From Candidatus Heimdallarchaeota archaeon (lineage in GTDB: Archaea; Asgardarchaeota; Heimdallarchaeia; JABLTI01), in the NCBI GenBank assembly GCA_018238155.1, contig JABCTZ010000042.1, forward strand, positions 1-26,462: a DNA stretch of 26,462 nucleotides, given 5' to 3'. Positions 1 through 24,057 of this stretch are shown one piece after another. Position numbers and translations under genes: made by a program. Positions within the stretch are counted from its first letter, which is position 1. The number at the start of each line of letters is the position of its first letter. The notes beneath the pieces were generated by a model that worked only from the letters and a program-made list of their open reading frames with translations, searched no databases and had not been told where the DNA came from.

Positions 1-3000
1 TTGATATTTGCATAAGCAGAAGAGGAGGATAGACCATAGGTATTAACCCACCAAGTATATTCAGCCTTATCACTTATGCCGTCATTGTCTGTGTCAGAAT
101 CTGTTGGATTGGTTTCAGAAGTGAAGATTTCAAAATAATCTGACCAACCGTCGTTATCCGTGTCACTATTTGTAAGACTGGTGCCATAGGTAAAGGCTTC
201 TAAGCGATCATTTAACCCATCGTTATCCGTATCGCTATCCCAGGGATTTCCTCCATAGAGGTATTCATCGATGTTCTTGAGGTTATCACCATCTAAATCA
301 GTTAATTCATCACTATCACTCGTGGGATTAAGTGAGTAGGTTACTTCCCAACCATCGGGCATGCCATCATTATCCGTGTCGGAATCTCTAGGGTCAGTAC
401 CAAGTGAATATTCGGAAATATTAGTTAAGCCATCATTATCAGGATCGTTCGCAGCATCATCAACAAGTGGATTTAGATTACGGGTTATTTCAAAACCATC
501 ATCCATTCCATCATTATCCGTGTCAGTATCTATTGGACTTGTACCATATGTATGCACTTCATCACCATCGTTAATGCCATCAAGATCAGAATCTGGTGCA
601 ACAGGATCTGAAAGATAGGTATTTACTTCGTCTCCATCTGTCAAACCATCGTTATCTATATCTGGATTATTACAATAACTGTATGCTGTAGAATCAGCTG
701 TTCCTAGACTTTTCCAATAATCATATTCGGAAACATCATCTAATCCATCTCCATCCGAATCACTTAACAAAGGATTTGTTAATGTAACACTTGTTTCATA
801 GTAGTCATTCCAACCATCATTATCAGTATCACTTATGAGTAAATCAGTTTCGTATACTGTAATTTCCATCAATGAAGATAATCCATCACAATCATGGTCA
901 AATTCAGCATCATTTGGATTAGTTGGATCAAGATTTAATTCATATTCAATATTATCATCAAGTCCATCCCCATCAGTATCCTTTACAAATGGATTTGTGA
1001 ATATCATTGATTCGATATAATTGGGTAAATGATCTTCATCAGTATCTTCTAGATTCCAATTTGAAATTGGAGATTCAAATGGATCAACATAATCTTGATA
1101 ATAACTATAGTCTTCATCATAACCATTAGCCCATTTTACTGCGTGTGTATAAACCTCCCAACCATCTTGCATTAAATCACCATCGCTATCTGGATTCAAA
1201 GGATCTAAAAGAAGTTCCCATTCTTCTTTATCACCTAGTCCATCGAAGTCACTATCTGTTGCAGCGGGATTAGACCAATAATCTATATCTTGTAATGTGA
1301 TTGTTTGACTATCCAACTCACCATTTCGGTCATGATCAGTTAAATAGACATCTACAGTTTCAGAATCTCCTAATAGTATTATCTCTTGATTATCATTTAA
1401 TCCATCTTTATCTGTATCGCTAGCAAATGGATTAGACTCGCATAGTATTTCAGTAATAGTTAATAATCCATCAGAATCATAATCAGAACTTGGATCCATC
1501 CAGATATATCGTTGGTCTTCAGGGATAGCATCAAAATTGGTATCAGTTGGTGTATCTGATATAAAGCTATATTCTTCTTCAGTATAAGCTTCAAAAATAT
1601 CTGCTATATAGATTTCATAATAATTTGCTTCTATTAAATTAGAAATCCCATCTCCATCATCATCATAGTAACGATTGGATTCATCTGAATCAAGAAAGCT
1701 TGAAATACTATCATCAATTTCATCATAGTCTGTCCAACTCCCCCCTTCTGGTTCTGAAACAGCAGTAGATAATTCTATTGATTGTGGATTATCATATAAA
1801 GGATTTCGACCTCGAAAAGGATTTGGAAATGATGACATACCAAATATAACTCCAATAGCAATACAACCTGTAACTACAGATCCTGTAGGACCACCAATCG
1901 CAAATCCTATAGCAACAGCTACACATAACATTAGAATATAACCCCAATTTTTAGCAAACCAGTCTCTTATAGGATATTTATCGGTATCTGTATCTGAATT
2001 TCCAGAGTCTATATAACCCTCTAATATATCTAGAGAGAGTGCGGCTAAAATCTCTGGAGCTTGATAAGTTCCGAGTGTATATACGTAATTGCCACGTTTT
2101 ATAATATTTTTAGATCTACACCAATCTTGATGATTTTCAACTTGAAAAATTAAAGCACTAACCGCAACTAAAAGCAAAGTACCTTCTGCACCAGTAGCTA
2201 ATGCACTTCTTATAGTATATCTTGTATGAGTACCTGGGGCTGAAGGATTCCTACCTGGCAATCCAATTAATATACCTACAAGACTTGCTGTTGAATAATT
2301 AGGATACAATTTAAACATCACAAGTTGAGTGTATTTGTCTGTTGGCTTCTTAAATATAAACCACATGGTACTATAACTTCTTAGGATGTCTTTGATTACA
2401 TAATTGTTTATGTATATTTCATCAGTTTTTGCATTTATGTGATCAGCGCCCCAATTCCCTCCTGGCTCTGTACTTTGTGAACCTTGTTGTAAATCTATAT
2501 GTAGGTAATCAGTAACAAATACTTTATCAAAAATATTCTGAATCGATAATGCTGATAATGCTAATATAGCTTGTAATCCGAATTGACTAAAAACCTCTGG
2601 TGTAACATATAATTGATATTTACATAATTGGTTACGCATTAAATCATTAATTCTTGGTTTGTATGAATTCCATTCAGCTAGACATCTAACAACTTCTTCA
2701 ACTTGGATATTTCCTTTAAAACCCATTACATTATCAAAATATTGTGAGATAATATATGAATCACAAGATGCTAATAACACCCATGAAAATTCATTGGATA
2801 ATTCATTAATCAAATTAGTCGAATCTCTTAAGCTTAATAGATAATATCCATGCTCAATTAGAACTGCCCAATCATTCTCGGAATAAACTAAATAACCAAA
2901 ATGAAATGGTTTGATTTTTGCATTGTATGCTTTTGCAATTTCAAATGCAATTAGATACATAATCGATAAGTCATCACAACTCAATCTTGAAATTAAATTA

Positions 3001-3266
3001 GCAATCTGAAACCTGACATCTAAATTTAAGCTTTCTTCAGAAAGCAAAAATAAACTACTTGGTTGTAGTTCGTTTCTTGTAATTTTAATTTCATTTTTGT
3101 CATTAACACTTATACAATTGCTATTAAGAATCAAATTAGAAGTAGCTTTTCTCTTAACGATATCGCAATTAATATCTCGTGCAAAAGAGAAACTACCCAA
3201 CAAACTGGCACATGCTATTAATATAATAATTAATAGAGCTCCGAATCTCTGCTTTTTCAAAATCAT
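1..3266 (-). CDS. Large secreted/surface protein with many Ca-binding Dx[DN]xDG (thrombospondin type-3-like) repeats; 3' end lies beyond the window start (>1088 aa)
   Basis: Not in the ORF track because it has no stop in the window. ATG at 3266 after GAAAGGA reads MILKKQRFGALLIIILIACASLLGSFSFA (signal-peptide-like). The same frame at the window start reads NPTDSDTDNDGISDKAE. DxDxDG repeats run over ~1-1700, and a hydrophobic hairpin lies at ~1840-1950. Confidence 0.85.
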   Translation of the reverse strand, partial: MILKKQRFGALLIIILIACASLLGSFSFARDINCDIVKRKATSNLILNSNCISVNDKNEIKITRNELQPSSLFLLSEESLNLDVRFQIANLISRLSCDDLSIMYLIAFEIAKAYNAKIKPFHFGYLVYSENDWAVLIEHGYYLLSLRDSTNLINELSNEFSWVLLASCDSYIISQYFDNVMGFKGNIQVEEVVRCLAEWNSYKPRINDLMRNQLCKYQLYVTPEVFSQFGLQAILALSALSIQNIFDKVFVTDYLHIDLQQGSQSTEPGGNWGADHINAKTDEIYINNYVIKDILRSYSTMWFIFKKPTDKYTQLVMFKLYPNYSTASLVGILIGLPGRNPSAPGTHTRYTIRSALATGAEGTLLLVAVSALIFQVENHQDWCRSKNIIKRGNYVYTLGTYQAPEILAALSLDILEGYIDSGNSDTDTDKYPIRDWFAKNWGYILMLCVAVAIGFAIGGPTGSVVTGCIAIGVIFGMSSFPNPFRGRNPLYDNPQSIELSTAVSEPEGGSWTDYDEIDDSISSFLDSDESNRYYDDDGDGISNLIEANYYEIYIADIFEAYTEEEYSFISDTPTDTNFDAIPEDQRYIWMDPSSDYDSDGLLTITEILCESNPFASDTDKDGLNDNQEIILLGDSETVDVYLTDHDRNGELDSQTITLQDIDYWSNPAATDSDFDGLGDKEEWELLLDPLNPDSDGDLMQDGWEVYTHAVKWANGYDEDYSYYQDYVDPFESPISNWNLEDTDEDHLPNYIESMIFTNPFVKDTDGDGLDDNIEYELNLDPTNPNDAEFDHDCDGLSSLMEITVYETDLLISDTDNDGWNDYYETSVTLTNPLLSDSDGDGLDDVSEYDYWKSLGTADSTAYSYCNNPDIDNDGLTDGDEVNTYLSDPVAPDSDLDGINDGDEVHTYGTSPIDTDTDNDGMDDGFEITRNLNPLVDDAANDPDNDGLTNISEYSLGTDPRDSDTDNDGMPDGWEVTYSLNPTSDSDELTDLDGDNLKNIDEYLYGGNPWDSDTDNDGLNDRLEAFTYGTSLTNSDTDNDGWSDYFEIFTSETNPTDSDTDNDGISDKAEYTWWVNTYGLSSSSAYANI

Positions 3267-4344: not shown

Positions 4345-4362
4345 ATAAAAATTTCAGTATAA

Positions 4363-4414
4363 CTTTCTTCTTTAAGGTCGAGAAGTCCAGTATAGTAATG
4401 ACACGCCAAGGTGG
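4363..4414 (+). repeat. Island repeat, partial copy (right half)
   Basis: ctttcttctttaaggtcgagaagtccagtatagtaatgacacgccaaggtgg matches the right half of the full copies. Confidence 0.85.
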
Positions 4415-4463
4415 AAAGATTAAGTTTTCTGTTAAATACCAGCAAAAATTCGAAAATGAATTA

Positions 4464-4661
4464 TTACTTCTTCAAGTTAACTTTAAAACAAATAAATAGA
4501 GTAGATCCTTTTTTCACTCAAATAACCCAGTCTCACCTGAGGTTATAGGGGTTAGTAAAAGAAAATAAAAAATAACTGATAATTATTTTGTAGAATCTAC
4601 GGCCCTCGCTTCTTCTTGAAGGTCTAGAAGTCCAGGTCGGTAATGACATGCTTTGGTGGCA
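4464..4661 (+). repeat. Island repeat, full copy A (~200 bp)
   Basis: ttacttcttcaagttaa...tcaaataacccagtctcacctgaggttataggg...aaaataactgataattattttgtagaatctac-ggccctcgcttcttcttgaaggtctagaagtcc...taatgacatgctttggtgg. Confidence 0.95.
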
Positions 4662-4840
4662 AGTAAATGCTGGTTGAGTATCTTGCTAAAAGATTCTGTA
4701 TGTAAATACCAAACATGAAAAAATCAGCTAAATTACTTGAAAACGAATAATTCTTACTAATTTGCTTAATTCATCATCGAAAAATATAAAACCACAAACG
4801 AATTAATTGTTTTAAAAAACTGGATAAGTGGGATAAAATT

Positions 4841-5239
4841 ATGGCTAAGATTTTCATCAGTTATAGGGATGATGATATTGAATGGAGAAATAATCTATAT
4901 AGTTTATTAAGAAATCCTGAAACTGAATTTCAAGATGTTCCAATACAAGAAAGGGAGGATTACAGAGGTACATCTGAGAGAACCATAAAAGATTATTTAC
5001 GACCATTGATAAGCGATGCTAGTTGTTTGATTTTACTGGTAGGAAATAATACTCACAATGGATGGTTTTTAAATTGGGAAATTGATGTAGCAATCTCAAG
5101 ACAAATTCCAATTGGTGCAATTAGAATACCTGATACAATAGGTGGACTCCCTCCAAAAATAAAGGGAATGGAAATTCCATTAGTTAATTGGGATAATACA
5201 GAGATAAAAAATATGATTGATCAATTTTTTGGCAGATAA
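4841..5239 (+). CDS. TIR-domain protein (ThsB / MTH538-like)
   Basis: KIFISY start, ASCLILLVGNNTH, WFLNWEIDVA with the catalytic Glu, PIGAIRI, VNWD. Confidence 0.9.
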   Translation: MAKIFISYRDDDIEWRNNLYSLLRNPETEFQDVPIQEREDYRGTSERTIKDYLRPLISDASCLILLVGNNTHNGWFLNWEIDVAISRQIPIGAIRIPDTIGGLPPKIKGMEIPLVNWDNTEIKNMIDQFFGR

Positions 5240-6216: not shown

Positions 6217-7131
6217 ATGGAAATAACCCATGAAGCTCAATTTGGAAATAGTAGGATTTTTAAAATAAAAATCAAGGAAAAAGAGATATTTACTCCGATT
6301 TTTTTCCCTGCAGTATCAAGTGTAGATATTAGAAAGTTTGAATCTATACTTAACTGGTTAATTGAAAAAAAGCCAATTAATTTCTTAGTATCTGGCTATG
6401 ATATCAATACAGAAATAGTAAGAAAATTCCCGATTAAGGAAACTTTTTTGATGCTAGATAGTGGGGGATATGAGATAAGAAATTTAGAAAAAAAATCATC
6501 TTGGTCGTTAAATAATTACAAGGAGATTATTGAAAAACTTGAACCAGATATAATAATCTCTTTAGATCTTCCTGATAATCAAAATCCAATTCAAGATTAT
6601 TTGTCTTTAAAGAGTAATTTAAATGAAGATGTTTTTCTTGAATTTGTTATTAGTGAAACCAATCCAAAAAAAATTCCTAATATGTTAATTTCATCATTGC
6701 AAGAAATACAACCTAATGCAATAGCGATTCCAGAGAGGAATTTGGGATTATCATTTATTGAAAGATTAAAAACTGTTAGAAAAGTTTCTAATATTTTACA
6801 AAATATGGAAAATCCGATTTTATTTCATATATTAGGCTGTAGCGATCCTGATTCAATTATTAAATATGCCAATGAAGGAGTTGATTTATTCGATGGTTTA
6901 GGATGGTATAAACGCGCAGTTTTTTATAAAGAAATTAAAAATAATAAATATAAATTGTATTCAGATTGGTCATTTATAGATTCATCAAAATTATCTGATT
7001 GTAATTGTTTTGTATGTAAAAAGGCTGACGAAATCAATCATTTAGAGAGAGTATTATCACATAATTTGCTTGCATATTCAAAATTGTGTGAGGAATTACA
7101 AATGTATATTATTGAAGGAGGAAAATTGTAA
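6217..7131 (+). CDS. tRNA-guanine transglycosylase (TGT)-like protein 1 (Cap10-like)
   Basis: TPIFFP, LMLDSGGYE, IISLD, FHILG, GVDLFDG, Zn motif CNCFVC...HNL. Confidence 0.88.
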   Translation: MEITHEAQFGNSRIFKIKIKEKEIFTPIFFPAVSSVDIRKFESILNWLIEKKPINFLVSGYDINTEIVRKFPIKETFLMLDSGGYEIRNLEKKSSWSLNNYKEIIEKLEPDIIISLDLPDNQNPIQDYLSLKSNLNEDVFLEFVISETNPKKIPNMLISSLQEIQPNAIAIPERNLGLSFIERLKTVRKVSNILQNMENPILFHILGCSDPDSIIKYANEGVDLFDGLGWYKRAVFYKEIKNNKYKLYSDWSFIDSSKLSDCNCFVCKKADEINHLERVLSHNLLAYSKLCEELQMYIIEGGKL

Positions 7132-7665
7132 ATGGGTGGTGGTGGTGGTGGTCGAGAAACTTCATATAGTAAATCAACTACAGGAATAAATTCACAGAAT
7201 TTAAGAAGAGAAGTAAAAGACAGCATAAGAAAAACCGAAAAAAGATTAAAATCAAAAGAATCAAAGATTACCTATCCTTCCAGAAATGTATTCATAAGCT
7301 TTCATATGGCTGATGAAATGCAAGTAAAATTGTTAAGACATCAAGCTAAAGATAATAGATTTAATTTTAAATTCAGAGATTATTCAGCTAAAGAAGCATT
7401 TAAGGACCCTTGGAAAAAATATTGCCGAGAAAAAATCAAACAATCCTCGTTTACAATTGTTATGATTGGAGAAGATACTCATAAGAGACCTGCTGTAAAA
7501 TGGGAAATTGCTGAAAGTTACAGACAAGGAAAGGAAGTCATTGGAATACGCATGTATAGAGATGAAAATTATAAAATACCACAGCAAATGAACGAGAAAA
7601 ATGCTAAAATCGTAAATTGGAATTTGGGTGATATTATGGAAATTCTTAGTGAAGCTTCTTATTAA
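7132..7665 (+). CDS. TIR-domain protein (ThsB / MTH538-like) with N-terminal MGGGGGG extension
   Basis: RNVFISF, FRDYS, SSFTIVMIGEDTH, AVKWEIAES (catalytic Glu). The ATG directly follows the TGT1 stop, with GGAGG at 7117-7121. Confidence 0.9.
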   Translation: MGGGGGGRETSYSKSTTGINSQNLRREVKDSIRKTEKRLKSKESKITYPSRNVFISFHMADEMQVKLLRHQAKDNRFNFKFRDYSAKEAFKDPWKKYCREKIKQSSFTIVMIGEDTHKRPAVKWEIAESYRQGKEVIGIRMYRDENYKIPQQMNEKNAKIVNWNLGDIMEILSEASY

Positions 7666-7699: not shown

Positions 7700-8638
7700 A
7701 TGAAAATAGATTTAATCAAGAAATTGAACATGGCAAAATCTTACAGAATTAAAATTAATAATTTTGAATTCAAAACGCCATTTTTTTTTCCTTCAATCTC
7801 AACATATAAAAATAATTTCGATACAATATTTAAATGGGTTTTAAGTAATCGATGTAACCAATTTTTATTTTCAGCTTATGATCTTAATAACAAGAGAACT
7901 GAATTATTGGCTAAAAAAAATATGAATATCTGTTTAGATAGCGGTGGATTTGAATTAAAAATACTAGAAAACCCAAAAAAATGGGATATTTATGATTTAA
8001 TAAACGTTTGTAATTCGGGAAAATTTGATATGATTATCTCTTTAGATCCATTTTTCGATAAAGAAGTTTTGCATAAATTCTTTCATACAAAAAATGATAT
8101 CTTAATACTATATTATGAAAAAATGGTTGAATCAATAAATTATGAAAGTCTTTTTGAATTTGCAATAACTGAGCATAAACCTGAAATGATAATTAAACAA
8201 TTGAAATATACCTTGAAAAAAATTAATCCAAACGCAATCGCTATCCCTGAGGAAAATTTGGGATTCACTTTTTCTGAAAAAATAAGCAATATAGAAACAA
8301 TTTCGAATCTACTGTCCAATCAATCAAATCCAATTTTATTTCATCTAAGAGGGTGCAGTAACCCTTTATCGATGATTGAATATTCATTGAGTGGTGTTGA
8401 CATATTTGATGGATTGGGATGGTCATCAAAAGTCATTAAAAAAACAGAAAACATATCAAATGAAGGAAAAATTTTACACAATTGGAAAACTTTCGATTAT
8501 AGTAAATTAGATAATTGTGAATGTGATGCATGTAAATCAAACAAAAGAAAAAAATATAATGATAAAGTATTAGCTCATAATTTATTTGCATATAAGAAAC
8601 TATTATCTGAAATCCAATTATTAATTAATGATCACTAA
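7700..8638 (+). CDS. TGT-like protein 2, paralogue of 6217..7131
   Basis: TPFFFP, CLDSGGFE, IISLD, PNAIAIPE, GVDIFDGLGW, CECDAC...HNL. Confidence 0.88.
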   Translation: MKIDLIKKLNMAKSYRIKINNFEFKTPFFFPSISTYKNNFDTIFKWVLSNRCNQFLFSAYDLNNKRTELLAKKNMNICLDSGGFELKILENPKKWDIYDLINVCNSGKFDMIISLDPFFDKEVLHKFFHTKNDILILYYEKMVESINYESLFEFAITEHKPEMIIKQLKYTLKKINPNAIAIPEENLGFTFSEKISNIETISNLLSNQSNPILFHLRGCSNPLSMIEYSLSGVDIFDGLGWSSKVIKKTENISNEGKILHNWKTFDYSKLDNCECDACKSNKRKKYNDKVLAHNLFAYKKLLSEIQLLINDH

Positions 8639-9573
8639 CTTAAATCGCTGTGATTGATATAGTAATTTCTTATATTTGTATATAAAGAATCAAATGCATT
8701 AGCAATAATTAAATGAGATTTAGCGGTTCTATAATCGATATTTTTTTTGTATTTCTCTAATAATATTTTTAATAAATCTAATTCAAATTTAGCAATTTGA
8801 TTTTTTCTGTATGAAATAATTTCTGGAAAGCAAAACCAAGTACAAGAATCATAATACGATAATAAGTAACTATGATAAACCATATTATCAGTAATTTTTT
8901 TGATTTCAAGAATTCGGATTTTCTTTTTTTCACCAACATCTCTTTCAGAAATGCCCATAACCAAATTTAAGATATTATCATATGCCTTAATAAAATTAAA
9001 TGGTGCACATCCCAATAATAAATCTCCTTCATATATTTCTGGAGAAATAATAAACTTATTTTTTATTAAAATCTCTATTTCAATAATAAGTTCTTTCCTT
9101 TTACTCTCCTCTCTATGAAAAACCTCATCAAGAACGTTATTTGAATTCTTTAGAAAATCATCTTTACAATTACTTAAACCCATTTTTGTATAAATAGTTA
9201 CTATATCATTAACGTATTTAATCAGAATATTTCTTGATACAGAATGAAATTTCGGTGAGTGGTATAATCTATTCCGAATTTCATGATATTCCAGCAATTT
9301 ATCAAACATATTCTTTATTTTTTTAAATTGTTTCTGTTTCTTACACATTTTGATTATATTTTCAAAGGATCTATTCTTTACAGGAATTCCAATAATAGTT
9401 TCCAAATAACTACGTAGTGTTCTTTCAACAACATTATCCAGTAATACAAAACTTTGCCGCAATGATGTATCATCGTTATTTTCTGCTAAAATAATGATAT
9501 TTCCTATAGATTTGTATAAATCCTCTATCCATAACCTATCTTGGTTTTTTTTAATTACCATTGCAATCCCCAA
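8635..9573 (-). CDS. HEPN-domain protein (putative RNase effector) with an unknown C-terminal domain
   Basis: SFVLLDNVVERTL helix and the HEPN R-x4-H motif EIRNRLYH. The start may be the ATG at 9561. Confidence 0.7.
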   Translation of the reverse strand: MGIAMVIKKNQDRLWIEDLYKSIGNIIILAENNDDTSLRQSFVLLDNVVERTLRSYLETIIGIPVKNRSFENIIKMCKKQKQFKKIKNMFDKLLEYHEIRNRLYHSPKFHSVSRNILIKYVNDIVTIYTKMGLSNCKDDFLKNSNNVLDEVFHREESKRKELIIEIEILIKNKFIISPEIYEGDLLLGCAPFNFIKAYDNILNLVMGISERDVGEKKKIRILEIKKITDNMVYHSYLLSYYDSCTWFCFPEIISYRKNQIAKFELDLLKILLEKYKKNIDYRTAKSHLIIANAFDSLYTNIRNYYINHSDLS

Positions 9574-9583
9574 TTTATTTTAT

Positions 9584-10171
9584 TTATATTTGCCAATTGC
9601 TAATAAGTGAATCAAAATTATAACCAACCCAAATTAGTACCAATATTGTGAAAACACCATATACAATAATCAAAGTTACGGGTATCCAAATTTCACCAAA
9701 AGTGATTTCTATATATTTCTTATCAATAATTTTTCTATTTCTTTTCCTGAATTTCTTCAATTTTATAATTCTTTTCTTGGGTTTCTTCGGTTTTTTATTC
9801 TTTTTCATTAATGCCCATTCTATTGTATATCCTTTTGCTGGTAATCTTTTTTCAATTTCATTAATAACTTGAAATTTGCTATCATTTAGTTTTTTATATT
9901 TTTTAATAAGTCGCTGCCAGCTTAAATCAAAAATGATACCAATAATAAGAACAATAAAAGTCCAGTGAATTAAATTTGATTCAACTAATAATCCAATAGC
10001 AACTAGAAATAAACTATTTGCAGTAAGAAAGAAGTTATTCATTGTGGCTCTTCTTGAACTAATTCTATCAGCCATCTCAATAAACAATTTATACTGTTTA
10101 AAAAGAGTATCTTTATCGTTCATTTCATCTTTATTAAAAAGATTGTTTATTGGTGAATCTTTGTTAGACAA
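9584..10171 (-). CDS. RipA/Rip1-like multi-pass membrane protein (putative pore-forming effector)
   Basis: QYKLFIEMADRISSRRATMNNFFLTAN, two TM helices, W..LIKKYKKLN.SKF.VI.EIEKRLP...EW, and a third TM at the C-terminus. Confidence 0.75.
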   Translation of the reverse strand: MSNKDSPINNLFNKDEMNDKDTLFKQYKLFIEMADRISSRRATMNNFFLTANSLFLVAIGLLVESNLIHWTFIVLIIGIIFDLSWQRLIKKYKKLNDSKFQVINEIEKRLPAKGYTIEWALMKKNKKPKKPKKRIIKLKKFRKRNRKIIDKKYIEITFGEIWIPVTLIIVYGVFTILVLIWVGYNFDSLISNWQI

Positions 10172-10591: not shown

Positions 10592-10806
10592 TACTTCTTC
10601 AAGTTAAATATAAAATAAGATTGACCCTTTTTCGTTCAAATAACCCTAGTCTCACCTGAGGTTATAGGGATAAATAAAAGAAAATAAAAAATAACTGATA
10701 ATTATTTTGTAGAATCTACGACCCTCGCATCTTCTGTAAGGTCTAAAGTCCATTTCGGAAATGACACGCTTTGGCAGCAGTTTTCTCCAAATTATTATTT
10801 CTTTAC
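10592..10806 (+). repeat. Island repeat, full copy B
   Basis: tacttcttcaagttaa...ttcaaataaccctagtctcacctgaggttataggg...gtagaatctacgaccctcgcatcttc...gtccatttcggaaatgacacgctttgg...ttatttctttac. Confidence 0.95.
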
Positions 10807-11276
10807 CACCATTTAAACCCATGTAAATCATCATGTTCTTTTTTAGACATAACTTCCAAGTTATCAGGTTCGTTGTTAAGTTTGTCACCATCGATATGAT
10901 GAACAACTTCACCACGACGAAGTTTTCTACCAACAACATAGTTTTCAGCAACCCAACGATGAACATATTCTCCTGAATCGCTAAACCGCATATATCCTCT
11001 ACTATCTTCATAGGTCTCAGATTCATCAACATCTCTTGGGGAGTAAGAGTCACAATTACAAATTCTACCAAACTTGAAAAGGATAATACCTAAGACTACA
11101 ATAACTCCAATTGCTATAAACCATCCATTGTGAAATAAAATACCAATAATAAATAAAATTACTCCTAAAAGAAAGAATGTACCTGTACAACCTAAAACTG
11201 AAATACAAGAACTTTTTTCCTCAATCTCCTCATCTTCTTCTTCATCATCTCCAAAACAACAATTGAATAGTCCCAT
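10803..11276 (-). CDS. Membrane-anchored HNH endonuclease
   Basis: Two TM helices followed by YVHRWVAE...EVVHHIDGDKLNNEPDNLEVM...EH (HNH motif). The stop codon lies in the end of repeat B. Confidence 0.85.
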   Translation of the reverse strand: MGLFNCCFGDDEEEDEEIEEKSSCISVLGCTGTFFLLGVILFIIGILFHNGWFIAIGVIVVLGIILFKFGRICNCDSYSPRDVDESETYEDSRGYMRFSDSGEYVHRWVAENYVVGRKLRRGEVVHHIDGDKLNNEPDNLEVMSKKEHDDLHGFKWW

Positions 11277-11348
11277 TAAATCCCTTCACTATAACCATTA
11301 AAAGTAAACACTAATCTTTATTAGTTTTACGATTCTCAAATTAGACTT

Positions 11349-11374
11349 GTATACTAATCATAATTTTAGTATAC
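11349..11374. promoter_or_regulatory. Inverted repeat GTATACTAA-N8-TTAGTATAC; candidate operator or recombination site
   Basis: Perfect 9-bp arms in the divergent region between the HNH and REase genes. Confidence 0.4.
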
Positions 11375-11523
11375 TGAAAAAAAATAAAATGGAAAATTCA
11401 GAGCCATTACACCCACATCCTCTCTGAAAGTAATGATTCTTGGAATCAATAAACAGAAATATTATAAAACTAGAAAATTGATTAGAATTAGAGCAAAAAA
11501 CAATTCATATAATTGGTGATTCA

Positions 11524-12606
11524 ATGAAGGGAAATATTGGAGAATGGAGTGAAATATATACATTCATGAAATTACTCGCAGATGGAAAACTATATGCAGC
11601 AGATGCTAATCTTGAAAAAATTGAATCGATTTTTTATCCGATTTTAAAAATTATTCGTGAAGAAAACAATGTAAAACTTATCTATGTTCGAAACTCAATG
11701 ATTAGAATAGCAGAAGAAGATGAAATAATTACTCTTAAAGAAGAGAAAGTAGAGAATTTCCAAAAAACAGCTAGACAATTACTAAGTTATCTAAAGGAGT
11801 CAAAAGGCAGGTCATTTGAATTTCCTGACATTGAACTTTTTCTGAATTCTATAATGTGTAAAGATTTGAAATCTAAATCAAATAACAAAAAGGATATTAC
11901 AATCGTAATCCATGATCCAAATACTGGTTTTGAACCAACACTGGGTTTTAGTATAAAAAGTCAACTGGGTTCACCTTCTACCTTATTAAATCCTGGAAAA
12001 CCAACGAATTTTCTATTCAAGATAAACAATTTAACACTTACAGATGAACAAGTACAAGAGATTAATAATATATCAACAAAAAGTAAAATCAAAGATAGAG
12101 TTAACAAAATTTTTTCTCTAGGAGGCAGACTTGAATTTTCGGGAATTGAAAATCCAACATTTAAATCCAATCTCCAATTAATTGATTCAAATTTACCATT
12201 CATATTAAGTGAATTGTTAACACTATTTTTTAGAGGGGAAGGAAGGACTTTACTTGAATTAATCCAAAAGATAATAGACGATAATCCATGCGATTTTGTA
12301 AATCCCAATGAACAACCATTTTACGAATATAAAATTAAGAAACTCCTACTTGATATAGCGTTAGGTATGACACCTACAAAAACTTGGACAGGAATATATG
12401 ATGCAACAGGAGGATACATCATTGTTAAAAAAAGTGGTGAGATTTTATCGTATCATATTTACAATTTAAATGAGTTTCAAAATTATTTACTAAATAATAC
12501 TAAGTTGGATTCACCTAGCTCAACACGCTATGAGTATGGAAAAATATACAAAGATACTGATGAGTTATATTTTAAATTGAACTTGCAAATTAGATTTATA
12601 AGTTAA
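11524..12606 (+). CDS. HpaII-family type II restriction endonuclease
   Basis: GNIGEWSEIY, KKDITI, GFSIKSQLGSPSTLLN, C-terminal KLNLQIRF; adjacent to a C5 MTase. Confidence 0.88.
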   Translation: MKGNIGEWSEIYTFMKLLADGKLYAADANLEKIESIFYPILKIIREENNVKLIYVRNSMIRIAEEDEIITLKEEKVENFQKTARQLLSYLKESKGRSFEFPDIELFLNSIMCKDLKSKSNNKKDITIVIHDPNTGFEPTLGFSIKSQLGSPSTLLNPGKPTNFLFKINNLTLTDEQVQEINNISTKSKIKDRVNKIFSLGGRLEFSGIENPTFKSNLQLIDSNLPFILSELLTLFFRGEGRTLLELIQKIIDDNPCDFVNPNEQPFYEYKIKKLLLDIALGMTPTKTWTGIYDATGGYIIVKKSGEILSYHIYNLNEFQNYLLNNTKLDSPSSTRYEYGKIYKDTDELYFKLNLQIRFIS

Positions 12607-12684
12607 TAAAGGAATGATTCCCATATTACTTAGTGGCACTTATAAATTGAAATTTGAACATAAATAATAGATTGGAGCAATAAA

Positions 12685-13998
12685 ATGGATGGAATTTTCA
12701 GAGCTATTGACCTATTTGCTGGCATAGGTGGCATTCGTTTAGGGTTTAAAGAAGCCTTTAATGATGAAATAGAATTTGTCTTTTCAAATGAAATTGATCC
12801 CTATTGTTGTCAAACGTATAAAGCAAATTTTGGCGATGATCCCTTAGGAGATATTACTAAAATAAACCCTAATAGTATTCCTGATTTTGATATTCTATTA
12901 GCAGGTTTTCCATGCCAAGCCTTTTCAATTGCCGGACGGAAAGAAGGATTTGACGACACTCGAGGAACGTTATTTTATAATATAGCTAAAATTCTAGATG
13001 CCAAAAAACCAATGGCTTTTCTTTTAGAAAATGTACCTCACTTAATGAATCATGACAAAGGTAGAACATTTCAAATAATTCGAGATATATTGGAAGAAGA
13101 TCTAAATTATAATATTCATTATATAATTTTAAATGCAAAAAATTTTGGTTTGCCCCAAAACCGGCCTAGAATTTTTATCGTAGGTTTCAAGCAGAACCTA
13201 CGTTTTACATTTCCTAAACCAACAAACGAAGTGATTAAATTAGAAGAAATCCTTGAAGATAAAGTTGATGAGTCCTATTATCTTTCACAACAATATTTGA
13301 ATGGTTTGAAAAAGCACAGAGCAAGACATGAAGCAAAAGGTAATGGATTTGGTTATGTAGTTGTCTCTAGAAATGGCATAGCAAATGCTATCGTTTTAGG
13401 TGGTATGGGTAAAGAGAGGAACTTGGTGAAGGATAAAATATTAACAAACTGTTGGAAGAGAGAAGGAGATAATATTCAACTTCGAAATAACGAAGGCATA
13501 AGAAAAATGACGGAAAGAGAATGGGCTAGATTACAGGGATTCCCTGAAACATTTACTTTCCCTGTAGCAAAAACACGAATTTATAGACAACTAGCTAATT
13601 CGGTTTCTGTTCCAGTTATAAGTGCAATAGCTAAGGAAATACTGAAAAGTTTAACTGAAAATATAATAGAAAAAAAACCAATCTTAAATACAAATGAAAA
13701 ACATGCAATTGATTTATTATTAACAATGTTTAGAAGAAAGAAATTTACTCATTCGGGAAAAAAAATGAAGAGTTCAATATATAGCATTATCAAAAATTAT
13801 GCATTAAGAATTGATGATATCGATGAAATTTTGAACATATTATTTAAATTGAAATTAATTGAAAGACTTGAAAAAGACAAGTTATATTTCAACAAGAAAT
13901 TGTTAAGCATAAATACTGAGACAGAATTTAAAAAATTAATTTATGACAGTTTTTTTGATGGAAAACCAATTTCAACGACAATTGAACAATATATCTAA
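12685..13998 (+). CDS. dcm: DNA (cytosine-5) methyltransferase, M.HpaII-like, with a ~110-aa C-terminal extension
   Basis: Motifs DLFAGIGG, AGFPCQAFS, LENV, PQNRPRIF, ARLQGFP, QLANSV; TRD segment RHEAKGNGFGY resembles M.HpaII. Confidence 0.95.
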   Translation: MDGIFRAIDLFAGIGGIRLGFKEAFNDEIEFVFSNEIDPYCCQTYKANFGDDPLGDITKINPNSIPDFDILLAGFPCQAFSIAGRKEGFDDTRGTLFYNIAKILDAKKPMAFLLENVPHLMNHDKGRTFQIIRDILEEDLNYNIHYIILNAKNFGLPQNRPRIFIVGFKQNLRFTFPKPTNEVIKLEEILEDKVDESYYLSQQYLNGLKKHRARHEAKGNGFGYVVVSRNGIANAIVLGGMGKERNLVKDKILTNCWKREGDNIQLRNNEGIRKMTEREWARLQGFPETFTFPVAKTRIYRQLANSVSVPVISAIAKEILKSLTENIIEKKPILNTNEKHAIDLLLTMFRRKKFTHSGKKMKSSIYSIIKNYALRIDDIDEILNILFKLKLIERLEKDKLYFNKKLLSINTETEFKKLIYDSFFDGKPISTTIEQYI

Positions 13999-15717: not shown

Positions 15718-15922
15718 TTAATTCTTCAGGTTAACAAAAAACAAGTAGATCCTTTTTTCATTCAAATAACCCTAGTCTCACCTGAGATTGTAGGAGGTAT
15801 TAAAAGAAAAAATAACTGATTATGTAGAATCTACAGCCCTCGCTTCTTCTTGAAGGTCTAGAAGACCATTTCGGTAATGACACACTTAGGTGGTAGTTTT
15901 CTCAGAGTAATTATTTCTTTAC
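15718..15922 (+). repeat. Island repeat, full copy C
   Basis: ttcttcaggttaac...gtagatccttttttcattcaaataaccctagtctcacctgagattgtagg...gtagaatctacagccctcgcttcttcttgaaggtctagaagaccatttcggtaatgacacacttaggtgg...ttatttctttac. Confidence 0.95.
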
Positions 15923-17487: not shown

Positions 17488-19242
17488 TCATTTATCTTTC
17501 CTTTTCTTTTCAATTTTTTGCATTGTTTCCCCCAAATCATCTTTAGTAATTGCAACATAGGCATGATACGGAATATTGACTTTGCTTTCTAATTTTTTAT
17601 CTTCTGAAATAAAATGCTCATTAACAAATATCTCATAATACTTTGATTTCTCATCATCTACTTTTACATTCGAAGGCTTTTGATGAAAATATTCCAAACA
17701 AACAATATTCTGTTTTTTATCATGTAGAATACTTCTTGCTTTATCTTTTCCCAATTTGACTTTAAAATGAACATCAAAATCTCTATTTGCTCCATCAACT
17801 GCTCCTCTGAAAATCTTTGTATATTTCTTACAAATATTAAGAAATATAGATCTAGTCTCTTTATCTTTGTGAATTGTATTGAGAATTATTGTGTAATCAA
17901 TTTTTTCATTATCAAATTTTTCAAGCTTTACTCTCCAACCAAGTGTATGTGTAGTCATTCTGCCTGATGGTCTCCCCCAACATTGTAATTCATCAAGGAA
18001 TGTAAGTAGAAATTGAAAATTATTTATATTTAGGTGATAAATATCATTACAATTATGTATTGCAATACTTCTTAAAATTTCTCTCCTTATTTGAAATTGT
18101 TTTTGATCCATTATTTTCAAAGTATGAAAATCATCTAATAGATAATCAGATTCCAAAAAATAAACCAAGTATTTCATAAGAAGCACACAACTAACAATTC
18201 CATGATCATAATCTTCAAAAGCTCTAGACAGTTTTAACCAGTATTTTGACTGAATATGCAATTTATACTCTTCAGGAGATTTATTACATCTTTCTAGTCT
18301 AGAAGAAATAAACTTTAGAACAAAATCATTAATAAAATGACCTTGTTGTGGAAAAGTAATGTCTATTTCTTGAATTTTTGATCTACCAAATGCTTCAAGC
18401 ATTTCCCGTACTTTGCTATTTATTTTTGTTAATTTTTCTAAAGGATAACCTAAATCATGTGTTAACGAAATTATAAACCACATTGCTACTTTTTCATTAT
18501 CCTGAATTAATTTCTCATTTTTTATTTTTTTGATATAAGTTTTTTCTGCTTTTTTAGAAGCTTTTTCCATTTCTTTGATATAGGCTTCTTCTAATTCTTT
18601 GATATAGACCTTTTCTATTTCTTTGAACATGTCATCATTTTGGTAAATCTTTAGAGAATTCAACTTTTCTTTATTTTTCTTAAACAAAAGGATAATACCT
18701 ATAAGAAAAACCCTAAAAACATGGAAAACATGATCTCTGTAGTATGGAATATTTTCATATAAAACTTCCTCAAATTCAATGAATCTTTTGAAATACTTGT
18801 ATAATTCATCAATACCAAATGTTTCCCAATCATGATATTTTTCTCTTTTATCCATTTCTTTCAAGTAAACTATTGCATCTTTTAATAATTCTCTCCATAA
18901 TTTAAGGACAATTTCATGAAAAGGATAAAATTTAAACTCGAAATTATTTTTATCATCTTTTATTTTTTTTAATTGCTTCTCATATAAATCATTTATCTCT
19001 TTTATATAATAATGGCTATCTTCAATTAAATCTTGTTCATAAGTCTTTGTTTTTTGAAAAGAGATACCAAAAAATAATCTTTCTTTCAGTTCCGATTTAT
19101 ATAATGACATGAAAGTTTTCCATAAATAATAATCATTTATTTCTAAACCATCGCTTTCAATTAATTTCTCATATTTCTCAATAAAATCTAATTCAACTTT
19201 ATTTTCAATAGTTGTAATCTTACTTCCTCTCCTAAGAAACAA
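17488..19242 (-). CDS. HD-superfamily metal-dependent phosphohydrolase (HD-CE-like)
   Basis: RDHVFHVFRV, LTHDLGYP, DHGIVS, IAIHN, LDELQCWGR. Confidence 0.8.
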   Translation of the reverse strand: MFLRRGSKITTIENKVELDFIEKYEKLIESDGLEINDYYLWKTFMSLYKSELKERLFFGISFQKTKTYEQDLIEDSHYYIKEINDLYEKQLKKIKDDKNNFEFKFYPFHEIVLKLWRELLKDAIVYLKEMDKREKYHDWETFGIDELYKYFKRFIEFEEVLYENIPYYRDHVFHVFRVFLIGIILLFKKNKEKLNSLKIYQNDDMFKEIEKVYIKELEEAYIKEMEKASKKAEKTYIKKIKNEKLIQDNEKVAMWFIISLTHDLGYPLEKLTKINSKVREMLEAFGRSKIQEIDITFPQQGHFINDFVLKFISSRLERCNKSPEEYKLHIQSKYWLKLSRAFEDYDHGIVSCVLLMKYLVYFLESDYLLDDFHTLKIMDQKQFQIRREILRSIAIHNCNDIYHLNINNFQFLLTFLDELQCWGRPSGRMTTHTLGWRVKLEKFDNEKIDYTIILNTIHKDKETRSIFLNICKKYTKIFRGAVDGANRDFDVHFKVKLGKDKARSILHDKKQNIVCLEYFHQKPSNVKVDDEKSKYYEIFVNEHFISEDKKLESKVNIPYHAYVAITKDDLGETMQKIEKKRKDK

Positions 19243-19246
19243 AATA

Positions 19247-20230
19247 TTAGACCAATTGTTCCTTAATAATTTTTTGAGCAGGACAATTTAAGTGGCATTC
19301 GTACTCCTGATTTGATTTATGAATAGAATTCATGAATTTGAAAACTTTTGAATCACTAATAATTATACTTAATAGATTTGTTTCAATGTTATTATCACCA
19401 TTTAATTTAATATTTTTCAAAGCTACACATGGATAGACATAACCATAAGGTGTTATACAAATCTTGTCAGTTCCAGCGCGACATTTAATTCTATCATTTT
19501 GTTTTAATATTGGAAGTGAAGAACTAAGAGAGATTCCTATTTTTTCACCATACTCACTGATAAAATCTTGAATTAGTGTTTTTACTTCAGTATCATCTAA
19601 TTCAAATTTGACTCTATTATTAAAAGCACGACCATGGGGTATAAATCTCAATAGATGTAAATTAAAAATATTAAATTTTCTAAGAAATGGTACTACCTTA
19701 AATAATTCATTTGCATTATTTTTCATAATAACAAAATTAACTTCTCTTTTAAAAACATAATCATTTTTTGAATTTTCCATTGAAATTAGTAGATTCATAT
19801 AGCTGTTAGATACTTGAGTGATTTCTTCGTGAGAATCCTTTGAAATTCCATGTAAGCTGAAAACAAGCTTATCCAATCCACTTTTATCTAGTTTTTTAAA
19901 GAATTCTTTTGATAATGGTAAATTCTTTTGTTCACGTCTATTGTATAAATTACCACTAGTATAACATATTACATAAAATGAATATTGTTTTGCTAATTTG
20001 ATAATTTTGTCTATTTTAGGATGTAATAATGGATCTCCACCTGAAAGTGAAATTTCATTGAAACCTAATCTTGCTGATTCTTCTATTATTCTAGAAATTT
20101 TATTAAAGCTTAAGAATGTATTTTTTTTAATATTTGAATTGCTAGAACAATGCGCACAATTCAAACCACATTTATCTGTGACTTCTAAACAGATAGTTTT
20201 GTTAAGATTCTTCGTGTATCTAAAGGCCAT
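19247..20230 (-). CDS. Radical SAM protein with SPASM/twitch domain
   Basis: CGLNCAHC (CxxxCxxC), SLSGGDPLLH, FSLHG, CRAG...ITPYGYVYPC, C-terminal Cys cluster. Confidence 0.92.
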   Translation of the reverse strand: MAFRYTKNLNKTICLEVTDKCGLNCAHCSSNSNIKKNTFLSFNKISRIIEESARLGFNEISLSGGDPLLHPKIDKIIKLAKQYSFYVICYTSGNLYNRREQKNLPLSKEFFKKLDKSGLDKLVFSLHGISKDSHEEITQVSNSYMNLLISMENSKNDYVFKREVNFVIMKNNANELFKVVPFLRKFNIFNLHLLRFIPHGRAFNNRVKFELDDTEVKTLIQDFISEYGEKIGISLSSSLPILKQNDRIKCRAGTDKICITPYGYVYPCVALKNIKLNGDNNIETNLLSIIISDSKVFKFMNSIHKSNQEYECHLNCPAQKIIKEQLV

Positions 20231-20465
20231 TTGTTAATAATCCCTTCATATCGCTCCAATACTTATTGGACATTCTATCTAATATTCTTTTTCTATCAAG
20301 CAATCTAAATCCAAATATGCTAATAAATAAGCATTTGCTTTTACTTAAATATCTATAAATTAGAGTTTTATTGAATTGAACCAATCACTTCTCTATATAT
20401 AAAAAAATATGTAATGTTTGCTTATATAAAATTTAGTGACATGAATTGAATCAGATATTCAATTC

Positions 20466-21338
20466 TTACAATGAGTCATGTTTTAATCCACCAAATTCAA
20501 TATTTTTACTGATAAGATTTATAGCCCATTTCTTCGTATTTGATACACGTCTTGCTGGATTCATTTCAGCTGAACAAACGGCTTCTTGGCCAAAAGATTG
20601 TGGCCAATCAGCAAGACAAAACCCTTTTCTTAATTTCTGATAATTTTTGAATCTTGTAAAACCATTATATGAGCAAAGAGGTAATTTGAATGTAAGGAGA
20701 TTTCTTAACTCATAATTGCTTAATCTAAGATCTTTTGTTAGTTTTTTGAACATACCCGCACCTGGCAGATTTGTATCAATTATATTTTTTGAAGCAATGT
20801 ATAGGATATTATTCTTATCCTTTAGATAACTATCTTTCAAATGAGGATGATAGGAATATTCCTTATTTTTAGTCGTAGGTTTAATAATCTCACCAACATG
20901 AATCCAACCATAGATATAGTAACCTTCAGTTAATATATTATCATATTTCTCCCAAGGTGAAAACCTAGAGAAAAAAAGAAAAATAGCACCAATAGAATTT
21001 TGTCCTACACCACAATTTCTGAGATATCCTTGAGCTGAACCCTTCTGTCCAAAAATAGGTCGCCAATTTTCTGTGGGAAATATTTGAATTAAATCAGGAT
21101 CTAAATGTGCACCATATTTTGGAATTCTTTTTCTCGTTTCCAAAATTTCAAATATATTATCAAAATTCATGAAATTAATTTTTAAACGATTATAGTCTAT
21201 TCCCTTATAATTTCTTGATATTTGATTTTTTGATTCAGGTTTAGGTATGAATACATATTCACCAGTTTTACCATTTAATGGTGAATACATACCTCCGCTA
21301 CTACTATCTATCCCTTTTCTACTTAAAATAACAGTCAA
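20466..21338 (-). CDS. Nucleotide-modification-associated domain 3 (Nmad3)-like protein
   Basis: VILSRKGIDSSSGG..SP, HLDPDL, FGQKGSAQGYL, FLFF, HPH. Confidence 0.78.
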   Translation of the reverse strand: MTVILSRKGIDSSSGGMYSPLNGKTGEYVFIPKPESKNQISRNYKGIDYNRLKINFMNFDNIFEILETRKRIPKYGAHLDPDLIQIFPTENWRPIFGQKGSAQGYLRNCGVGQNSIGAIFLFFSRFSPWEKYDNILTEGYYIYGWIHVGEIIKPTTKNKEYSYHPHLKDSYLKDKNNILYIASKNIIDTNLPGAGMFKKLTKDLRLSNYELRNLLTFKLPLCSYNGFTRFKNYQKLRKGFCLADWPQSFGQEAVCSAEMNPARRVSNTKKWAINLISKNIEFGGLKHDSL

Positions 21339-21460: not shown

Positions 21461-21507
21461 CTCTTCATGGTCTAGAAGTCCATTTCGGTAATGACACGCT
21501 TAGGTGG
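21461..21507 (+). repeat. Island repeat, partial copy (right half)
   Basis: ggtctagaagtccatttcggtaatgacacgcttaggtgg is near-identical to copy C. Confidence 0.9.
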
Positions 21508-21519
21508 AAAAAATATGAA

Positions 21520-23914: not shown

Positions 23915-24057
23915 AATTCTTCAATTCAATAATCCTAGTTACAACTAATCGTAAAAAGGACAAAAGAAAAATAGAATTTCTAATTGATTGCAGTCAATAT
24001 ATGACACTTAGCCCTCGCTTCTTCTTGAAGGTCTAGAAGTTCATTTCAGTAAAGAAA
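23915..24057 (+). repeat. Island repeat, degenerate copy (left part decayed, right part conserved)
   Basis: tcaataatcctagtt...aaaagaaaaa...agccctcgcttcttcttgaaggtctagaagttcatttcagtaa. Confidence 0.88.

Follow-up and report, generated by a model that had tools for sequence, protein, structure and literature searches.

A glycine-tailed TIR protein in a probable Thoeris-type locus of a Heimdallarchaeote with type IV CBASS-like accessory genes

Introduction

In the type IV cyclic-oligonucleotide-based anti-phage signalling system (CBASS), the CD-NTase carries an N-terminal 7-amido-7-deazaguanine (NDG) on its G2, as was established by mass spectrometry and crystallography, and deletion of the motif or a G2D substitution abolished defence (Wassarman et al. 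2025, bioRxiv 10.1101/2025.04.06.647259 / Science 389:1347). The system consists of CdnD, Cap9 and Cap10, with or without Cap11, an OGG-like protein that is optional and present in about one third of systems. There the complex with Cap10 is stabilised by the modification, and when Cap10 is lost the complex with Cap9 is trapped. To date, a CD-NTase is the only protein on which deazaguanylation, the direct joining of a nucleobase to a protein N-terminus, has been shown, while the QatC–QatB pair is under study. Here we describe a stretch of 26,462 nucleotides from Candidatus Heimdallarchaeota archaeon (assembly GCA_018238155.1, contig JABCTZ010000042.1; hereafter the window), in which the gene of a TIR protein, TIR2, opens with a run of glycine codons and lies among genes for a QueC-family enzyme and two TGT-family proteins, TGT1 and TGT2.

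The QueC of the window is Cap9-like and has the SxGxDS loop, the TGTs are Cap10-like and have base-reading and catalytic residues, and the tailed protein begins with a form of M(G/S)G(G/S)GG, the start being rich in glycine, serine or alanine in all 23 QueC-linked loci described below. Unlike in type IV CBASS, the tailed enzyme is a TIR protein and not a CD-NTase, the host is an archaeon, the predicted effector is a membrane protein of the 8xMP family, and there are two Cap10 paralogues with a zinc site and no Cap11. No CD-NTase family turned up in the open reading frames scanned with Pfam and PADLOC. In QatABCD systems a QueC-family enzyme likewise uses the N-terminal glycine of its partner, QatB, as a nucleophile; the window QueC, however, with 196 residues, did not match the QatC model NF041925 (length 398) and has TGT partners, and no QatA-, QatB- or QatD-type family was found in the same scan.

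The second close relative is a group of Thoeris operons with cap9, cap10 and cap11, for which Yirmiya et al. (bioRxiv 10.64898/2025.12.03.692087, December 2025) suggest a similar mechanism and give AF3 ipTM values for ThsB of 0.79 with Cap10 and 0.62 with Cap9. As in our locus, a ThsB TIR is associated there with cap9 and cap10, and AF3 predicts it to bind both products as the CD-NTase does. In contrast to what we report here, no N-terminal glycine motif is described in the main text, and its example is a Pseudomonadales bacterium, whereas the family described here is mainly archaeal; the part of the supplementary tables that we draw on has no mention of PF24838, PF06508 or Heimdall. A 2026 survey of Asgard archaea reported that none of the putative host genomes it discusses has a complete Thoeris system (PMC13700489).

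Our analysis indicates that the locus is probably a Thoeris-type, TIR-based anti-virus system whose TIR protein is primed by type IV CBASS accessory machinery. The original prediction, made from the DNA letters, held that TIR2 is a substrate of QueC and that this would extend the modification to TIR enzymes. The first part is supported by comparison (the motif, the 23 linked loci, the likeness to Cap9 and Cap10, and the docking model), while the second does not stand as a new idea, given the work of Yirmiya et al. summarized above.

Results

The start codon and the glycine run of TIR2

The TAA stop codon of TGT1 ends at position 7131 and the ATG of TIR2 follows directly at 7132, so that the junction reads as had been claimed, ATG GGT GGT GGT GGT GGT GGT. 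The window contains ATGGGNGGNGGNGG a single time, and none of 100 dinucleotide-preserving shuffles contained this pattern. The 177-residue product begins MGGGGGGRETSY, and its first residues, MGGGGGG, fit M(G/S)G(G/S)GG, the motif described in the literature as the acceptor in type IV CBASS CD-NTases. The claim that TIR2 has its own GGAGG Shine-Dalgarno site was also confirmed (Table 1), and GGAGG precedes the TIR2 start in the homologous loci L054 and L051 as well. A TGT stop codon that abuts or overlaps the TIR2 start was seen in the homologous loci L054, L056 and L058, an arrangement that fits co-translation of a stoichiometric pair, compare the 2:2 Cap10–CdnD complex.

An extension of about 50 residues does precede the TIR fold: RNVFISF, which forms the first TIR strand, begins at residue 51, and the Pfam domain ThsB_TIR covers residues 54–144. 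The other TIR protein of the operon, TIR1, lacks such an extension, as stated in the original prediction, and begins MAKIFISY at the first strand. We also looked for a hidden glycine start upstream of TIR1, but the frame is closed there and none is present.

Start-site prediction in archaea is error-prone in general, and the annotated start of TIR2 might be wrong and the glycine run untranslated. The TIR2 frame, however, holds no further ATG, GTG or TTG before the TIR fold; the next in-frame start is Met59, which itself lies inside the fold, so no start other than the ATG at 7132 yields the whole domain. The 50-residue extension is 53–77% identical in the closest homologues, and both the GGAGG site and the abutting upstream stop codon are conserved. 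The probability of a wrong start is in our view negligible.

Conservation of the tail

In the AF2 model of TIR2, residues 1–20 are disordered, residues 21–41 form a helix, and residues 51–177 form the TIR fold. Foldseek gave the Bacillus cereus TIR 8FZ9 as the closest structure (TM 0.72–0.78 on the target), followed by ThsB 9B7D, 8WCF and 6LHY. By domain and fold, TIR2 is a ThsB-type TIR. A candidate for the conserved catalytic glutamate of TIR NADases is Glu125 in a W-E-I motif, which is conserved in at least 90% of the sequences in alignment A1 and invariant in alignment A4.

The TIR2 family that we collected has 99 members, the window TIR2 and 98 homologues. An extension of 29–59 residues stands before the invariant RNVFISF strand in 88 of the 99, and in the 73 members with a clear glycine/serine start it measures 33–54 residues. 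Position 2 of the 88 extended members is glycine in 71, serine in 8 and alanine in 3, and glycine occupies position 3 in 62 and position 4 in 69; several apparent non-glycine starts hold an internal MGGG and look like miscalled starts. The remainder of the N-terminal linker is poorly conserved across the family. The glycine codons differ between homologues (GGT, GGA, GGC and GGG), therefore selection acts on the protein. As judged from these alignments, the acceptor motif and the putative docking helix are conserved in TIRs.

Co-occurrence of the tail with QueC and TGT

We screened 46 genome loci, metagenome loci and one further genome scan with the window proteins and with profile hidden Markov models. 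The common archaeal operon has the order TGT, OGG-like gene (Pfam Ogg-HhH, the Cap11 role), QueC, tailed TIR and 8xMP. QueC adjoins the TIR gene in 23 loci, the window and 22 others (rows of the tree table), and all 23 TIR proteins have the tail, 35–50 residues long. Their starts are MG in 19, MSGG in two, MAGG in one and MTAGGGGG in one (L002), which bears out the expectation that QueC-linked TIR homologues keep an MG start in 19 of 23 cases and the extension in every one. In the 26 loci without QueC and TGT, the TIR protein has its start only a few residues from the first strand, or the contig ends there, and an 8xMP gene still adjoins the TIR gene in most of them. Most of the family comes from archaea, namely Nitrososphaerota, Thermoplasmatota, Bathyarchaeia, Thor- and Heimdallarchaeota.

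The TIR-domain tree splits into a clade of short bacterial forms and a clade of archaeal ones. Nested within the tailed, QueC-linked relatives is a Nitrosopumilaceae subclade (L021–L025; support 98/92) from which QueC, TGT and the tail were lost together, so the linkage of tail and QueC rests on more than one event.

Two-gene systems of Acidobacteriota, Rhodothermales and Chloroflexota (L026–L046) have the same TIR family with an adjacent 8xMP gene; they differ from our locus by the absence of QueC and TGT and of a tail on the TIR protein, and look like an unprimed core system. A second minimal pair of this kind was seen in the genome itself, on the 212-kb contig C20, where a tail-less ThsB_TIR of 140 residues (L138:1016-1438, +) is convergent with an 8xMP gene (L138:1447-2010, -). 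This 8xMP was matched at C20:197429-197833, and no QueC or TGT lies beside the pair.

The docking model of QueC and TIR2

A complex prediction for QueC and TIR2 gave an ipSAE of 0.75 (runs 0.75, 0.75 and 0.68), whereas the highest score among three controls was 0.00. Of 80 solved complexes, 58 attain that mark, as do 2 of 110 mismatched pairs, counts that hold only roughly here because the prediction was fed with our own alignments A2 (QueC) and A1 (TIR2). The runs agreed in at least 63% of the contacts, and the pLDDT of the partners was at least 65. Confident contacts were formed by TIR2 residues 21–43 with QueC residues 17–24, 106–107 and 141–163. These QueC positions include or adjoin those aligned to Cap9 M29, L104 and S135, the triple mutant of which abolished CBASS defence, and in the Cap9–CdnD crystal CdnD is bound via its N-terminal tail plus helix alpha1 (Wassarman et al. 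2025, bioRxiv 10.1101/2025.04.06.647259). Since the partner of Cap9 also binds by tail and helix, the model reproduces a known binding mode with an unrelated substrate fold, and it supports docking of QueC on the extension helix of TIR2. The original prediction had proposed to model the peptide in the QueC active site; a confident placement of Gly2 there was not obtained.

The tail and helix could also be a non-covalent docking handle, with QueC and the TGTs acting as regulators or scaffolds, or with QueC making a free deazaguanine ligand that is sensed by the TGT. The confident contacts of the model indeed involve helix 21–43 and not the glycine tail. In addition, two loci, L132 (a Pacearchaeota metagenome-assembled genome; 7316-9865) and L133 (an unclassified one; 504-3053), have a clean MGGG-tailed TIR with an 8xMP gene and no QueC within 9 kb; their neighbours are a degenerate TGT-like protein (hhalign probability 89%) without the DSGG motif and a divergent CARF-wHTH gene. 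A docking helix alone, however, needs no conserved N-terminal glycine/serine run with varied codons, this run matches the motif that is covalently modified in CBASS, and QueC keeps the whole ATP-pyrophosphatase loop. We therefore regard a purely non-covalent handle as improbable.

The Cap9-like QueC and the Cap10-like TGTs

A search of the PDB with the window QueC gave B. subtilis QueC (3BL5) and Cap9 (9NTO, 9.8e-13). The SGGxDS pyrophosphate loop (S9, G10, G11, D13, S14) and the four zinc cysteines are invariant in 19 aligned QueC sequences. The window QueC scores 93 bits against the 150.3-bit cut-off of the housekeeping model TIGR00364, whereas the genome's own QueC, on contig C13 beside a QueE-like radical SAM gene, reaches 163 bits. 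Because of this low score and the true QueC elsewhere in the genome, we read the window QueC, from its sequence, as a specialised paralogue distinct from the housekeeping enzyme. Two QueD/PTPS genes lie on contig C21; with these, the QueE-like gene and the housekeeping QueC, the host can probably supply 7-carboxy-7-deazaguanine. A third QueC-like gene, on contig C9 (L049:1468-2145, -), encodes 225 residues and scores 51.6 bits to TIGR00364, far under the cut-off; it adjoins a PLD/NucT-like nuclease gene and the gene of a 395-residue protein without assigned function and may be part of another QueC-based defence system.

The only PDB match of TGT1, and likewise of TGT2, was Cap10 (9NTN). TGT1 residues D81, S82, D117, H204 and D226, which by the numbering carried over from these PDB-match alignments are equivalent to the base-reading D73, S74 and D122 and the catalytic pair H226 and D248 of Cap10, are invariant in 16 sequences, TGT2 included. 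All 16 members of the TGT-like family also keep a CxCxxC...H zinc motif (C262, C264, C267 and H282 in TGT1). TGT2 was found in the window and in L051 and L054 only; L056 and L131 lack it.

QueC and TGT are classically enzymes of nucleic-acid modification, the TGTs of the locus retain a zinc site like the tRNA enzymes, and six identical GGT codons have the form that replication slippage can make. One might therefore suppose that QueC and the TGTs modify nucleic acid in a Dpd-like DNA pathway or a tRNA pathway, that the TIR is unrelated to them, and that the glycine run is a slippage-born linker. Against this, the PADLOC DpdA model gave an E-value of 0.007 with no matched stretch, compared with 4.6e-30 for PADLOC TGT (the Cap10 role), and Cap10 is all that either TGT matches in the PDB. 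A Dpd system combines a DpdA-type TGT, DpdB and more dpd genes; the Pfam and PADLOC scan of the open reading frames revealed neither dpdB nor any other dpd gene. The window QueC stays under the equivalog cut-off while a housekeeping copy exists elsewhere, the tail and QueC/TGT were gained and lost together, and the TGT1 stop codon abuts the TIR2 start in several loci. Modification of nucleic acid independent of TIR2 is in our judgement very improbable.

A bolder reading would combine the NDG tag with transfer: a TGT1/TGT2 heterodimer, comparable to QTRT1/QTRT2, would employ the base-exchange chemistry of TGTs to move NDG-tagged TIR2 covalently onto a nucleic acid or another ribosyl target, with TIR1 and the small Cys/His protein of the operon as sensor or partner. 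We consider this rather unlikely. If true, TIR2 would be the first case of a TIR signalling enzyme that is anchored by way of a nucleobase, in the archaea most closely related to eukaryotes, and it would reveal a Thoeris branch that current surveys of Asgard defence do not detect (PMC13700489).

Layout of the locus, the predicted effector and accessory genes

The coordinates of the locus are collected in Table 1. By Pfam and PADLOC, the genes on the plus strand follow one another in the order TIR1, 107-residue protein, QueC, TGT1, TIR2 and TGT2.

Table 1. Features of the TIR2 locus, in positions of the window
Feature	Position	Strand	Evidence and remarks
TIR1, second ThsB-type TIR	4841..5239	+	Pfam ThsB_TIR 4.3e-13; no N-terminal extension
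Small Cys/His protein, 107 residues	5276..5599	+	between TIR1 and QueC; alignment of clade members
Cap9-like QueC-family enzyme, 196 residues	5613..6203	+	PADLOC QueC 1e-31; predicted deazaguanylating enzyme
TGT1, Cap10-like transglycosylase-family protein	6217..7131	+	PADLOC TGT 4.6e-30; abuts TIR2
GGAGG, Shine-Dalgarno-like site	7118..7122	+	9 nt 5' of the TIR2 ATG
ATG(GGT)6, N-terminus MGGGGGG of TIR2	7132..7152	+	predicted 7-amido-7-deazaguanine acceptor, Gly2 after Met removal
TIR2 codons 21-41, predicted alpha-helix	7192..7254	+	AF2 model; predicted QueC docking element
TIR2, ThsB-type TIR enzyme, 177 residues	7132..7665	+	Pfam ThsB_TIR 1.2e-18; PADLOC ThsB models
TGT2, second Cap10-like paralogue	7700..8638	+	PADLOC TGT 1e-21; 38% identical to TGT1
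312-residue protein, convergent with the operon	8635..9573	-	RNRLYH (Rx4H) motif; overlaps the TGT2 end by 4 nt
8xMP-family membrane protein	9584..10171	-	Pfam PF24838, 1e-31; predicted effector of the TIR signal

The 8xMP protein has three hydrophobic segments. A homologue adjoins the TIR gene in 41 of the 46 genome loci, whether or not QueC and TGT are present, and also in L051, L054, L056 and L131; we infer that 8xMP is a dedicated effector that responds to the TIR signal. The ThsB-type TIR domain and fold, and the adjacent gene of a predicted dedicated effector, are features that the locus shares with Thoeris. The 8xMP effector is not listed by PADLOC, and a literature search on 8xMP found nothing relevant. 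We considered whether it could be a DUF2270 (ThsF) or SLATT protein, but no such Pfam match appeared even at E <= 10, and for this reason the system was not assigned to Thoeris type V or VII.

TIR1 stands in the same position in L054, L056 and L131, and the simplest reading makes it a further ThsB that is not primed and signals to the same effector. The small protein found between TIR1 and QueC occurs in the clade of the window only and has invariant Cys7, Cys18, Cys46 and His49 together with an HPxxERxSxQxW motif (alignment A5). Its AF2 model is beta-rich (pLDDT 72), and no Foldseek match in the PDB was obtained at E <= 0.001. The search against Pfam yielded no family and only a chance-level WSD match, and a look-up in the protein atlas returned only archaeal clusters without names (0.89–0.91).

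The 312-residue protein co-occurs with TGT2 in L051 and L054 and is absent from L056 and L131. It had been called a HEPN protein, for which the Rx4H motif is the sole evidence, and this call was not confirmed: Pfam and PADLOC gave no match, and the atlas returned clusters without names, with DUF4145 and DUF3644 only at 0.81–0.86.

With respect to the canonical order TGT, OGG, QueC, TIR and 8xMP, the clade of the window differs by the small Cys/His protein in place of OGG, by the extra tail-less TIR and, in some loci, by the second TGT. Both L007 and L002, archaeal relatives with the canonical operon, carry an Ogg-HhH gene, while no match to it was found in the whole genome studied here, which is 90.7% complete. 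In the closest metagenomic relative (L054:6076-8605), we also noticed a RelA_SpoT and TPR-S protein and a third tail-less ThsB_TIR beyond 8xMP.

The host and the genome context

The contig of the window has a guanine-plus-cytosine content of 0.289, compared with 0.328 for the genome, and the lowest tetranucleotide correlation of the genome's contigs (0.98). Mis-binning was therefore considered. It is countered by an intergenic repeat that the contig has in common with nine other contigs of the genome, and by an operon of the same type, the closest one on a long contig, which lies on a 174-kb contig (L131) of another Heimdallarchaeota metagenome-assembled genome, with the gene order 8xMP, TIR1, small protein, QueC, TGT and TIR2. 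The housekeeping QueC of our genome is 94–97% identical to the QueC of a Candidatus Heimdallarchaeota metagenome-assembled genome. An Asgard (Heimdallarchaeote) host is probable.

This host raises the question of whether the N-terminal glycine is a lipidation signal, similar to N-myristoylation, that brings TIR2 to the membrane near 8xMP. MGGGGGGR agrees with the eukaryotic myristoylation pattern, which is a loose one, and a GNAT protein of 363 residues on contig C21 (L136:760-1851, -) passes the Pfam cut-off of the NMT N-domain with 32–33 bits, whereas none of 14 control genomes has a match. The same GNAT, however, matches Acetyltransf_9 better and has no NMT C-domain, and the second NMT match of the genome is interrupted by three stop codons. 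Moreover, Nitrososphaerota, Thermoplasmatota, Bathyarchaeia and a Brocadia bacterium keep the tail, in every case together with QueC and TGT, and lipidation appears to us extremely improbable.

The intergenic repeat, about 50–90 nt long, lies 5' of TIR1 in the window (4356-4500 and 4596-4740), with partial copies at 15830-15893, 21462-21510 and 24011-24055; it was also found on C28, C33, C5, C9, C35, C2, C10 and C32, mostly AT-rich contigs. A scan of the window with Rfam matched no family, these repeats included. The remainder of the contig forms a defence island (window 10803-13998 and 17488-21338) with genes for an HNH endonuclease and for an HpaII restriction enzyme with a C5 cytosine methylase, and with a cluster of Nmad3, a radical SAM/SPASM gene and a gene of 584 residues without known function.

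Discussion

The sequence features, the family assignments, the co-occurrence of the tail with QueC and TGT, and the docking model were seen directly in this work, and by homology to the system of Wassarman et al. the following course of events may be proposed. TIR2 would be translated from the ATG at 7132 and lose Met1, since glycine follows. The Cap9-like QueC would dock on the extension helix at residues 21–41, and the flexible glycine tail would enter its active site, where host-made 7-carboxy-7-deazaguanine would be activated (adenylated) with ATP and the base joined to the amine of Gly2, giving an N-terminal NDG. This tail could then be bound in the base pocket of the Cap10-like TGT1, possibly together with TGT2, and TGT binding would keep TIR2 in a controlled state or hand it on to a further target. 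Upon infection, TIR2 activity would be released, and an NAD-derived signal would open the neighbouring 8xMP effector.

Several observations weigh against this proposal. The locus has no Cap11, and its TGTs keep CxCxxC..H, whereas the structurally characterised Rhizobiales Cap10 was reported without a zinc site. The linkage counts include related sequences, with few independent events behind them. L002, although linked to QueC, begins MTAGGGGG, and a glycine at position 2 is thus not absolute. The extension is also kept in four loci without QueC within 9 kb, L009 and L134 having odd extensions with no QueC nearby, and, as L132 and L133 keep the MGGG start, the tail can persist where QueC is not linked. 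In the complex model the helix is placed confidently, Gly2 in the QueC active site is not, and the docking score may partly reflect likeness to the solved Cap9–CdnD structure. Finally, the covalent 7-amido-7-deazaguanine on TIR2 is an adduct that we infer.

To the described systems our analysis adds the conservation in TIRs of an acceptor motif and a predicted docking helix, the loss of both along with QueC and TGT, the breadth of the family in archaea including Asgard lineages, the predicted 8xMP effector and the variant architecture. Asgard archaea, which have been reported without complete Thoeris systems, would carry a variant with extra parts. If TIR2 is deazaguanylated, the same primer would control a second, unrelated class of immune signal synthases, and the Cap9/Cap10 module would, like Cap2/Cap3, be a regulator that is portable. 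Compact constructs for finding the target of Cap10 can also be drawn from the locus.

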